From assembly GCF_001677475.2 (NCBI RefSeq), contig NZ_CP015229.1: 64,000 bases of DNA; one strand, given 5' to 3'. Below are positions 745 to 21,046 of this stretch, piece by piece. The DNA comes from Escherichia coli. GTDB taxonomy: Bacteria; Pseudomonadota; Gammaproteobacteria; Enterobacterales; Enterobacteriaceae. Both the position numbers and the translations under genes were made by a program. The notes below the pieces were generated by a model, which was given only the letters and a program-made list of their open reading frames with translations, had not been told where the DNA came from and ran no database searches. Position 1 is the stretch's first letter, and every line of letters starts with the position of its first letter.

Positions 745-1743
745 TTATTTCTTGCTGAATTCAGCCAGGTTGTCTTTATCTACGCCAACATAAGGTACGC
801 GGACCACTTTGTTGTCGATTTTCCAGTTGGTGCCATCAGCCGCACCTTTGCCATCGGCCAGGTTTTTGGCCAGATCAAAGGTCGCTTTCGCCTGGTTGTT
901 AGCATCGTTCAGTACGGTGCCCGCCAGTGCACCGGATTTCACCAGCGCCAGCGCTTCTGGCAGCGCATCGACGCCAAACACCGGAATGCTGGACTTGTTG
1001 TGTGCTTTCAGTGCTTCTACCGCGCCCATTGCCATCGCATCGTTGTTGGCGATAACCACTTCGATTTTGTTGGCGTTCGGGCCAGACAGCCAGGCGTCCA
1101 TCTTATCTTTCGCCTGAGCGGTATCCCACATAGCGGTATCTAACTGTAACTGTTCAGTTTTAATGCCTTTGTCGTTCAGCTCTTTAATCACGTAAGTAGT
1201 ACGCGCTTCTGCATCCGGATGGCCCGGTTCACCTTTCAGCAGTACGAATTGAATCTGACCGTCTTTGTTAAGATCCCAACCCTGATTCGCCGCCCAGTGT
1301 TTAGCAATCAAATCGCCCTGAATAATGCCGGACTCTTTGGAGTCAGTGCCAACGTAGTAGGCTTTGTCGTAGCTATCCAGCGCCTTACGAGACGGTTCTT
1401 TGTTAAAGAAAACCACCGGCACGTTTTGCCCACGCGCTTTCTCAATCACCGTACCCGCAGCTGCCGGGTCAACCAGGTTGATTGCCAGTGCCTTCACCCC
1501 TTTCGCCAGCAATACGTCGATCTGATCGTTCTGCTTGGACTGGTCATTCTGAGAATCATTCATCAGCAGCTGAACATCTGGCGCGGCTTTCGCATCTTGC
1601 TCAATAGCCTTGCGCACTACAGACATAAAGTTATCGTCGTACTTATAGATTGTTACACCAATGCGAGTATCAGCAGCGTGTGCAGCGGCACCGAATAACA
1701 TGCTGGCCATCACAGCAGATAGGGTTAACACCTTCTTATTCAT
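745..1743 (-). CDS. mglB: D-galactose/glucose-binding periplasmic protein
   Basis: 332-aa ORF with signal peptide [23 protein letters not shown] followed by the mature GBP sequence [16 protein letters not shown]. Confidence 0.95.
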
Positions 1744-1994
1744 GGTATCTCCGGTTTTTCTTATGCAGGGTAGTGCTTGAGATAAATGCTCGGCGGGGCA
1801 GTAGAGTTAATGAAGTGTTACTGAACGCCGAAGCTCACTTTTTAAAATTCGTTCTTCCATGCCCGGTAACGCTCCAGAAAACGGCTTTAATTGTTGTTAT
1901 GACGCTATTACCTCGGTGAAAGTGATTATTCACTGTTACATACGGGTTACAACGTTAAAACGGTGCAATCATAGCTATCACATTGTTAAGATAC

Positions 1995-2026
1995 TGTGAA
2001 ATCACTCACAGATTGAAAGCGGTTAC
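1995..2026. promoter_or_regulatory. Candidate CRP site (TGTGAaatcacTCACA) adjacent to a GalR/GalS-type operator half-palindrome (TGAAAGCGGTTACA) upstream of mglB
   Basis: Near-perfect TGTGA-N6-TCACA at 1995-2010 and gal-operator-like palindrome at 2013-2026, overlapping the galS stop codon. Confidence 0.5.
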
Positions 2027-3063
2027 ATCGCCAGATTTGTTGAGTTAGTGATCGCCGCCGCATTCTGGCGCGTTGCGACAGAATGGCGACGCACTAACGT
2101 CGGCATAAAACAGTGGCTGGCACGAGGATCAATATTTCCTGCTGCCCCCTGCAAGGCCAGTTCGGTGGCTAATTTAGCCATTGAAGCAATGGGATAACGC
2201 ACGGTCGTTAATTGCGGGTCGGTGTAACGAGCGATGGGAATATCATCGAAACCGATGATTGAGAGATGTAACGGAATCGCAATGCCATTATCTTTTAATG
2301 CTGTCAGTGCGCCAGCGGCCATATTGTCGTTATAAGCAAATACAGCGGTAAGTTGTAGATTGCGCCCCAGCAGTTCAACCATCGCCGCCTCACCGCCCGG
2401 CATGTCCGGCGTGCCAGTGCCAATCCAGCTTTCCGGCGGAATAATATCCTGCTCTTTCAACGCACTCATCCAGCCTGCTTTACGCATGGCGTCATCTTCA
2501 ATGCCGTGGCTGGAAGAAAGATAACCAATACGTTGATGACCGTTATTCAGCAACATGCGCGTCGCCATTCGGGCACCGCTGAGATTATCCAGGCAAACGC
2601 AACGATGAGCGTACCCCGGCACAACGCGGTTGATTAACACCATACCGGGAATGTTATCCATAAATTGTGCCAGTTCATCGTCACTCAATGCTTTTGAGTG
2701 AACAATCAACGCATTACAACGTTGGCGAATTAACACCTCAATAGCGTGACGCTCTTTTGCCGCTTCATGATAGCTATTGCCGATTAGCACGTATTTCTGA
2801 TGCTGCTGGGCGACCAGATCCACCGCTTTTACCAGCGCGCCGAAAAACGCATCAGAAACGTCCATCACCACCACGCCAATGGTGTCGCTAACCTGAGTTG
2901 CCAGCGCCTGGGCATTGGCGTTTGGCCGATAATCCAGCTCACTCACGGCTTTCATTACTGCTTCACGCGTGTCGGCACTGACCAGCGTGCTGTTATTGAG
3001 CACCCGGGAAACCGTTGCCACAGAGACGCCAGCCTGACGCGCTACATCACGAATGGTGATCAT
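2023..3063 (-). CDS. galS: LacI/GalR-family repressor of the mgl operon
   Basis: ORF begins [25 protein letters not shown] (HTH) followed by a periplasmic-binding-like sugar-sensing domain; the ORF track adds two upstream codons. Confidence 0.9.
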
Positions 3064-3204
3064 ATTCACTACCTGTTATGAGATTGCAGTAAATGACTGC
3101 TTGCTGGCGGCTATTTTGTCAGCACTGAATACAGGACTTCGTGAATCGAGTCACAGCAATGGAAACGGTTACAGCCGTTTTGTTAACGAATGTGATCCAG
3201 ATCG

Positions 3205-4362
3205 TTATCTTGATGTTTTAGATATTGCCGGTCCGGCAGCACGCAAAGTTAACTGACGCCAGAGCCATTCCACCGGCCCCTGGCGGAAGTAACGCAGCCA
3301 GATAACAGAGAAGAGGATATTCGCCAGCCATACCGGAATAACAAACGCCAGCAGCTCCAGGCGGTCAAAATGCATAAACAAACCGAGGTGGTAAAAAAGC
3401 GTGGTACAAATCAGCGTTTGCAATAGATAGTTGGTCAGCGCCATCCGTCCGACGCAGGCGATCGCAAGCACCAGCTTAAAGCGGCTCAATTGCGGCCAGA
3501 AGCCATAAAACAGCGACGCATAGCCAATCGCCTGAAACGGCGCACTCAGTTCCCGCGGCATTTGAAGTAAGAAGGCACACCAGCGATACGCCCAGTCCAG
3601 CTGCCATTGCAGGGCGATGGCAGGAAGGTTAATGATCACCCCAATCGCCACCAGCACAAAACCAGTACGACGATAGTGACGTAAGCTGAACTGCCCTTTC
3701 AGCCAGCCGCTGCGCATCAGCGCCGCACCAATGAGCATCATCCCTGCCAGTTGCCAGCCATACTGTGCGCCCAGTGCCAGTAAACTGTTCCCAACACCAT
3801 CGGCACGATTACTGATCGCTTCAACACCACCATGAAGTTTCCAGTATTTTTCATACAAAATAGTCGACGCATCAGGCGTCCAGGCACGGCTGGTCTGGCT
3901 GTCGGAAATCAGCCCCAATAACAGCAAAACGCCAAGCCCCACCAGATAAAGCATGACGCCGGTATTAAACAGGCTTTTTACCGATGGCGCATCGCGCACC
4001 AGCCGCCAGCAGATTAAGCCCACCAGCCCGTAAGCCAGCAGAATATCGCCGTCCCAGAACAATAAACCGTGAATAAAGCCCAGCAAGACTAACAGCGTTA
4101 ACCGCGACTGGATCCAGCGTCTGCCACGGGGCAGCAACATTTGCAGGCCCGCACCAAACAGCAGCGCAAAAAGCGTGAGGAATTTCACCTGGCCGATGAG
4201 ATCGAGAAATGCCCAGGTCCATGCATCCTGTGGCGTAATAGCGCCATACCAGGCGGGATTAAGATAAGCCGCCTTTGGTAGCCCAAAGGCGCTGATGTTT
4301 AATAGCAGGATCCCCAGAATGGCGACGCCGCGAACAAAATCGAGCGTGACGTTGCGCTCCAT
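3205..4362 (-). CDS. yeiB: Inner-membrane protein (DUF418 family)
   Basis: 385-aa hydrophobic multi-TM ORF; conserved position between galS and folE. Confidence 0.8.
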   Translation of the reverse strand: MERNVTLDFVRGVAILGILLLNISAFGLPKAAYLNPAWYGAITPQDAWTWAFLDLIGQVKFLTLFALLFGAGLQMLLPRGRRWIQSRLTLLVLLGFIHGLLFWDGDILLAYGLVGLICWRLVRDAPSVKSLFNTGVMLYLVGLGVLLLLGLISDSQTSRAWTPDASTILYEKYWKLHGGVEAISNRADGVGNSLLALGAQYGWQLAGMMLIGAALMRSGWLKGQFSLRHYRRTGFVLVAIGVIINLPAIALQWQLDWAYRWCAFLLQMPRELSAPFQAIGYASLFYGFWPQLSRFKLVLAIACVGRMALTNYLLQTLICTTLFYHLGLFMHFDRLELLAFVIPVWLANILFSVIWLRYFRQGPVEWLWRQLTLRAAGPAISKTSR

Positions 4363-20623: not shown

Positions 20624-21046
20624 AGCACGTCCTCTGGTAAAAAATTACCAACCCTGTCAATCCACAAGAATATAGATACTGCAAAGACGGTTTAAACATG
20701 TGTTCATATTTAAACATGTGCTCATAGTATGCATGTTTTACGTAAAGTAAATTACCGCCAGAGAGGCAAAATGGGCAGATTTGAGCAGGCTCACAAAATG
20801 CGATTAAATGCCTGAATTACAAAAGCGAGGAATTTGTGACGGGATGCACAGAACATGAACACTAAAAAAGGGCAGAAAATAATCTGCCCTTGAGGAAATA
20901 ACCTTAGTGTTTGATGAACGTTTCAGGTTTCTACTGAAAGATAAAACCATTTAAATTCATAAAATTACATTCACAAACCGGTCATTCTCTTTGCGCTCAT
21001 CCAATGATACAGGGCAGGAAATTTCTGCCCTGTAACACACCTTTTA

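Follow-up and report, generated by a model that had tools for sequence, protein, structure and literature searches.

In E. coli, the isorepressor GalS, and not GalR, is the main repressor of the mgl operon (Weickert and Adhya; Geanacopoulos and Adhya 1997). In the lac system, the operator that overlaps the end of the repressor gene is an auxiliary one (-82), CRP occupies a class I position (-61.5) and the main operator lies at +11. The combination of a good -10 element, a poor -35 element and CRP centred at -41.5 is the signature of a class II CRP-dependent promoter (Busby and Ebright). The P1 promoter of galETKM carries the operator OE at -60.5 and a CRP site at -41.5, and GalR bound at OE blocks the open complex through the C-terminal domain of the RNA polymerase alpha subunit (PMC4693257). 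LacI autoregulates its own gene by a roadblock at O3 (PMC3711431). For the mglBp promoter of E. coli K-12, the RegulonDB positions quoted in the Reg-Seq supplement are -41.5 for CRP and -59.5 for GalR/GalS, i.e. 18 bp apart; the same supplement states that mglBp has the 'same architecture as galSp', and its label of 'class I' for the -41.5 site is a slip. The mglBAC operon is described in the literature as CRP-activated, and its control region, listed in RegulonDB and EcoCyc, has long been a model, both for the gal regulon and for the adaptive mglO mutations that arise in glucose-limited chemostats.

The window analysed here is a stretch of 64,000 nucleotides of E. coli (assembly GCF_001677475.2, contig NZ_CP015229.1). 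The galS-mglBAC region falls within it, and its genes are encoded on the minus strand. The segment 1600-2200 is matched in 5,425 of 5,426 complete E. coli genomes with an identity of 95-99.7%, and the features at these matches are annotated as galS and mglB. The strain is an E. coli other than MG1655, its top matches being 99.7% identical; in this part of the window, a position x corresponds to x + 2238605 in NC_000913.3. The start codon of mglB is the ATG at 1743. For galS, the list of open reading frames gives a GTG at 3069, while the MG1655 annotation uses the ATG two codons downstream of that GTG, and the GalS translation ends with ...TNSTNLAM followed by the stop. In the galS-mglB region, the MG1655 RefSeq record holds only CDSs and no regulatory features. 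From the end of galS onward, the minus strand reads ...CTG GCG ATG TAA CCGCTTTCAATC TGTGA GTGATT TCACA GTATCTTAACAATGTGATAGC TATGAT TGCACC G..., and the features located in and around it are collected in the table.

Features of the galS-mglB region of the window (coordinates of the 64,000-nucleotide stretch)
Feature	Position	Strand	Basis or remark
mglB CDS, periplasmic galactose/glucose-binding protein, first gene of mglBAC	745..1743	-	ORF, translation, annotation
mglB 5' untranslated leader, 218 nt	1744..1961	-	derived transcription start to mglB ATG
mglB Shine-Dalgarno GGAG	1749..1752	-	read from sequence; in invariant block AACCGGAGATACCATG
Spot 42 sRNA pairing region	1764..1792	-	predicted duplex; seed UACCCUGC at 1765-1772
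Conserved leader element, predicted imperfect hairpin	1811..1879	-	RNAalifold; UGGAG.CGUUAC...GGAAG / CUUCG...GUAAC.CUUCA
mglBp transcription start (+1, G)	1961	-	back-calculated from RegulonDB -41.5 and -59.5
-10 hexamer TATGAT of mglBp	1968..1973	-	-12..-7 from derived transcription start
CRP-cAMP site core TGTGAGTGATTTCACA	1995..2010		centre 2002.5; full 22-bp site 1992-2013
mgl operator (mglO), GalS/GalR site ATGTAACCGCTTTCAA	2013..2028	-	16 bp, centre 2020.5, consensus match
galS stop codon TAA	2023-2025	-	
galS (mglD) CDS, LacI/GalR-family galactose isorepressor	2023..3063	-	ORF and translation; galS b2151 in NC_000913.3
galS promoter module: operator TGTAACCGTTTCCA, CRP-like site TGTGACTCGATTCACG	3160-3173, 3140-3155	-	

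The region is the textbook mglBp control region: the initial annotation was confirmed in what it observed and supported in how it interpreted it, and the feature is already known. We are highly confident that it acts as the promoter-operator of E. coli mglBAC, with class II activation by CRP, repression by GalS/GalR and a leader of 218 nt. The locus is the same as that of K-12 mglBp ('mglO'); its operator, CRP core, -10 element and spacing agree with the positions in RegulonDB, and among the elements examined no difference was found.

A near-consensus TGTGA-N6-TCACA site had been called at the 3' end of galS. The site is there, and 'near-consensus' understated it, since its core is perfect and the 22-bp site departs from the consensus in the flanks only. 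This core is the sole perfect match in the 64 kb (0.07 expected from shuffles), while CRP-like sites with at most one mismatch number 7 in the window against 2.2 expected. Two sites with one mismatch each (20780-20795 and 20835-20850) fall in the intergenic region between fruA and psuK; they are 55 bp from one another and precede the start of psuK (pseudouridine kinase) by about 160-230 bp. The palindrome next to the perfect site is, as the gal regulon operators are, a 16-bp quasi-palindrome with a central CG, and its core TGTAANCGNTTNCA (2014-2027) has one further match in the window, in the galS promoter (3160-3173), against 0.09 matches per window expected from shuffles; two matches were reached in 1 of 100 shuffles of the window. 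Both matches precede gal regulon genes. Only three bases (2011-2013) separate the CRP core from the operator core, so that the 22-bp CRP site touches the 16-bp operator, and the two centres (2002.5 and 2020.5) are 18 bp apart. They lie 259.5 bp (CRP) and 277.5 bp (operator) upstream of the mglB ATG, within the 250-290 bp proposed beforehand. The last galS codon, ATG (2026-2028), and the stop codon both fall within the operator, and the operator half-site TGTAA is made of the final two bases of that codon plus the stop TAA. The abutment of the two sites at the end of galS thus stands as it had been described.

Short degenerate motifs do arise by chance, and one perfect CRP core was seen in 7 of 100 shuffles of the window. 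The two motifs might accordingly be chance matches in AT-rich intergenic DNA, with no regulatory role. Against this, two rare motifs occur together, at a fixed spacing of 18 bp, in front of the right operon, and their positions agree with those in the database. The 18 bp between the RegulonDB sites is exactly the spacing of the window centres, which was the outcome of the comparison with mapped mgl positions that had been proposed as the check.

Because the RegulonDB positions of CRP (-41.5) and of GalR/GalS (-59.5) both point to position 1961, the transcription start was placed there, at 2240566 of NC_000913.3; this placement rests on database positions quoted second-hand in the supplement of a preprint. 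With this database-derived start, CRP is centred at -41.5 in place of a -35 element, on a 22-bp site with the half-sites of TGTGA-N6-TCACA, as in class II promoters. The hexamer at -35..-30 (CAGTAT) is a poor -35. A simple scan for the sigma-70 consensus (1600-3300) did not call mglBp, because the promoter is without a -35 element. In the Reg-Seq experiments, an activator footprint of CRP was observed at -41.5 and controlled the output of the reporter, whereas the GalR/GalS footprint at -59.5, whose annotation was listed as of weak confidence, was not recovered under the conditions used. Between the CRP site and the -10, at 1985-1990 on the minus strand (-29..-24 of mglBp), the 22 genera compared share the hexamer TTAACA without variation; as a -35 it lies too near TATGAT, with a spacer of 10 bp. 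A sigma-28 promoter, GCCGAGCA, was also considered from the sequence and found no support in a literature search; control of mglBAC by FlhDC has been reported from microarrays only, without a direct site.

The only minus-strand match of the sigma-70 scan was TTGTAA-16-AATAAT at 1952-1925, inside the leader. It could be taken for the promoter from which mglB is mainly transcribed, in which case the upstream sites would act from a distance or on a minor transcript. In favour of such an internal promoter, the leader holds several conserved blocks, and in the Reg-Seq work a single mutation turns AATAAT into a new, consensus -10 with a new start; the preprint locates this mutation at '+30', while the hexamer spans +32..+37 from our derived start, a numbering discrepancy of 1-2 nt. 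The wild-type AATAAT, however, needs that mutation for its activity, the number of promoter-like matches in 1600-3300 is equal to the shuffle expectation, and the reporter output is governed by the CRP footprint at -41.5. In addition, the authors of the Hfq CLIP and Spot 42 study regard the long 5' UTR as part of the transcript (PMC5207318). We regard transcription mainly from inside the leader as very improbable, and take the start at 1961 as that of mglBp.

Published mutations fall on both sites. Chemostat cultures have yielded mutations in the CRP site as well as in 'mglO', the latter 3 bp before galS ends; the mglO change, a G to T '3 bp from the end of mglD', leads to semi-constitutive expression of mglBAC. 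Another study described a GalS-site and a CRP-site mutation, each a C to A change as read on the reference strand and separated by 17 bp, and found the same mglO base to be recurrently selected (PMC7863352). These two mutations fit position 2026 of the window, which is the G of the final galS codon (ATG), and position 2009, where TGTGA has its first G; both positions are C on the plus strand, with the same separation of 17 bp. The mglB control region therefore does overlap the coding end of the regulator, as the initial annotation had it; because the mglO mutation was placed at the end of galS, this overlap was already in the literature. The repeated selection of mutations in both motifs is again opposed to a chance origin.

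The conservation of the module was examined in species-representative genomes, which were scanned with a back-translated MglB motif (YKYDDNFM). A total of 120 mglB loci was found, in Enterobacterales, Pasteurellaceae, Aeromonas, Vibrionaceae, Firmicutes and others; each locus was oriented, the mglB start was located, and the upstream 600 bp were searched for operator and CRP cores. Nearly every Enterobacterales locus with enough upstream sequence carries an exact operator core that is followed, after 3 nt, by an exact CRP core, and the spacing of the centres is always 18 bp. Among Pasteurellaceae loci with enough upstream sequence, most have the operator-CRP pair, with a spacing of 19-20 bp, and four are without the module. 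In Aeromonas, the operator is kept in most loci, and the CRP match has two mismatches and only the TCACA half. Neither an operator nor a CRP core was found in the upstream 600 bp of the mglB loci of Vibrio, Photobacterium and Gram-positive bacteria. Within 22 Enterobacteriaceae genera, the ungapped identity is 96% for the operator, 100% for the CRP core and 95% for the -10 element, while that of the 12 bp upstream of the operator (galS tail or spacer) is 57%. This phylogenetic footprint, in which the motifs stay 96-100% conserved across genera while the flanks drift, rules out chance; the probability left to unselected matches is negligible. The module was also found in loci for which no galS-like gene was detected upstream, some of which hold little upstream sequence, and a similar regulatory region was reported in Yersinia pestis, an organism without galS (PMC3119520).

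These observations fit the following mode of regulation. At high levels of cAMP, CRP-cAMP at -41.5 would activate RNA polymerase in the class II mode, on a promoter with the good -10 element TATGAT and no -35 element. In the absence of galactose, the -59.5 operator directly upstream of CRP would be occupied by a repressor dimer, either of GalS, which is the main one for mgl, or of GalR, and this activation would be blocked. By analogy with galE P1, the repressor most likely holds the C-terminal domain of the polymerase alpha subunit and so prevents the open complex. Binding of GalS to the mgl operator has been described as preventing open-complex formation (PMC7863352). Sequence, databases and literature show where the sites lie, how far they are conserved, what mutations in the operator and the CRP site do, and that Spot 42 regulates the operon; the contact with the alpha subunit at mglBp is inferred. 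Binding of D-galactose would release the repressor from the operator, and transcription from 1961 would then produce a 218-nt leader in which the site for pairing with Spot 42 comes shortly before the ribosome-binding site.

The likeness to galE P1 lies in a gal operator, bound by GalR/GalS, directly upstream of a class II CRP site. The two differ in four respects: the spacing of the centres is 18 bp in mgl and 19 bp in galE, mgl has a single promoter, mgl is without a full internal operator for looping, and GalS in place of GalR is its main repressor. A second full operator, of the kind used in galE-like looping, was sought in the mglB leader and was not found, TGTAAC half-sites and half-site-like pentamers being all that is present. 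Of the pentamers GTAAC/GTTAC, the leader has 4 where 0.46 would be expected (P = 0.0015), and two of them form the stem of the hairpin described below. On the minus strand at 1925-1952 (+10..+37), two tandem TGTAAC half-site-like repeats, TTGTAACC and ATGTAACA, lie 11 bp apart and are followed by AATAAT; the ATGTAAC at +22 of the leader is nearly invariant between genera. Within the window, the galS promoter resembles mglBp in having an operator followed by a CRP site, in the same orientation. It differs in a spacing of 19 bp between the centres, in a CRP core with one mismatch (TGTGA...TCACG) and in having no overlap with a coding sequence. The window thus holds two copies of one regulatory design, one before the repressor gene and one before its target operon.

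Because galS is the next gene upstream and is read from the same strand, its end runs into the operator half-site TGTAA, from which it takes its TAA. The window and about 24 further Enterobacterales loci share this source of the galS stop codon, which amounts to about half of the Enterobacterales loci. The genera with the stop inside the operator are Escherichia, some Citrobacter, Pantoea, Erwinia, Dickeya, Mixta, Rouxiella and Acerihabitans; three Rodentibacter loci show the same arrangement. In Enterobacter, Kluyvera, Kosakonia, Serratia, Yersinia and others, the galS stop precedes the operator by 2-38 nt. The length of the GalS C-terminus differs between genera. The promoter module thus appears to be the conserved unit, up to or into which a variable C-terminal tail of GalS runs. 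Since the overlap is seen in only about half of the lineages, it gives the impression of compaction, arising as genes are tightly packed, and not of a selected device.

The same geometry is known from lacI and O3, where a LacI-family gene lies upstream on the same strand, its stop is inside an operator, and the CRP site of the regulated operon follows. A difference is that the overlapping operator is the sole operator in mgl and an auxiliary one in lac, and a roadblock in mgl is a candidate by this analogy. Repressor bound at the galS stop, as LacI at O3, would in that case also halt polymerase that has started at the galS promoter; galS mRNA would be cut short ahead of its stop codon, GalS would thereby be autoregulated, and read-through into mglBAC would be limited. 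As at O3, the operator covers the 3' end of the repressor gene on its own strand, and no terminator separates the two: no terminator-like site was found on the minus strand from the galS stop (2023) to mglB (1744), and the galS transcripts must therefore run into the operator. The upstream galS-like genes of other sampled loci likewise mostly stop within the operator core or short of it by 2-45 nt, except for two in Pasteurellaceae (142 and 181 nt). However, elongating polymerase overrides GalR at the internal operator of galE (OI) in vitro as long as the sequence context is left as it is, and the gal repressors are on this ground not reliable roadblocks. The restriction of the overlap to about half of the Enterobacterales loci suggests that it was not selected, the literature search found no report of a roadblock, and autoregulation of galS is already served by the operator and CRP module at its own promoter. 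A roadblock at the galS stop is for these reasons considered unlikely, and tight packing of galS against the mgl operator is the reading retained here.

A long leader had been proposed for mglB from the distance between the sites and the gene, and this holds true: it is 218 nt from the derived start, and 'about 250 bp' was given for the mglBAC 5' UTR in the literature (PMC3119520). Across Enterobacteriaceae it keeps a length of about 215 nt, against 230-350 nt in the sampled Erwiniaceae and Dickeya and about 60 nt in Pasteurellaceae and Aeromonas. The fold of the whole leader is not unusually stable (z = -0.40), and the Rfam covariance models gave no match at E <= 1 on either strand of 1500-3400. 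A CsrA site was considered from the conserved motifs ACGGAAG and CUGGAG in the leader and found no support in a literature search.

In Salmonella, experiments with deletion, pulse expression and compensatory mutations demonstrated that Spot 42 represses mglB; the sRNA base-pairs at a conserved 5' UTR site, which lies downstream of an Hfq peak, and takes part in a feed-forward loop with CRP (PMC5207318). The leader of the window is predicted to pair in the same manner. Nucleotides 1-25 of Spot 42 (MG1655 spf) form a duplex with 1792-1764 at a predicted -24.8 kcal/mol, which 9 of 1000 shuffles also reached, and the single-stranded seed region is thus complementary to a site near the ribosome-binding site, as expected of a Spot 42 target. 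The seed UACCCUGC and the block AACCGGAGATACCATG are invariant in 18 genera. When full-length Spot 42 was folded with the leader, 31% of the shuffles were as good, and regions II and III of Spot 42 gave nothing against the leader; the specific pairing comes from the 5' single-stranded region only. Since CRP activates mglB and represses Spot 42, the three form a feed-forward loop.

Upstream of the Spot 42 site, the leader contains a predicted hairpin of about 70 nt, into which RNAalifold joins further conserved blocks of the alignment. At its pairs, 90-93% of the sequence-by-pair cells are paired against 25-50% with slid partners, and 4-5 pairs show compensatory changes; these counts are biased towards the structure, since the structure itself was derived from the same alignment. 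Folds of single sequences gave z-scores of -0.3 to -2.1. The covariance model built for this hairpin (R1) has exactly one match in the 64-kb window (1811-1879, 83 bits), and its other matches are mglB leaders of Enterobacteriaceae only, except for weak ones in one Pantoea and one Mixta. With the same model, no hairpin was detected in Serratia, Yersinia, Erwinia, Dickeya and Pasteurellaceae; the mglB leader of Yersinia was remarked to be unrelated (PMC3119520), in agreement with the missing hairpin there. In most genera, a U-rich tract, GUAACGUUUUAUUAAC, follows the 3' arm of the hairpin, less so in E. coli. An ORF of 14 codons (MEERILKSELRRSV and a stop) lies inside the hairpin region at 1816-1860 on the minus strand. 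No Shine-Dalgarno sequence is evident in front of it, and other genera have ACG or AAG in place of its ATG; judged from these features, it is probably not translated.

The hairpin is conserved, matches no Rfam family and is apparently undescribed. Our best guess is that it may serve as an Hfq docking module for Spot 42; it may instead be an attenuator or a stability element. A broader reading of the locus, in which the hairpin is a previously undescribed, lineage-restricted cis-regulatory RNA element and, separately, GalS at the stop codon of its own gene roadblocks galS, is tentative and rather doubtful.

As the control region has long served as a model, the value of the present analysis is that of a positive control: the call of the two sites and of the long leader, made from the sequence only, was correct to the base. 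What is mildly new is the cross-genus view of the overlap between the galS stop codon and the mgl operator, together with the conserved hairpin in the mglB leader.
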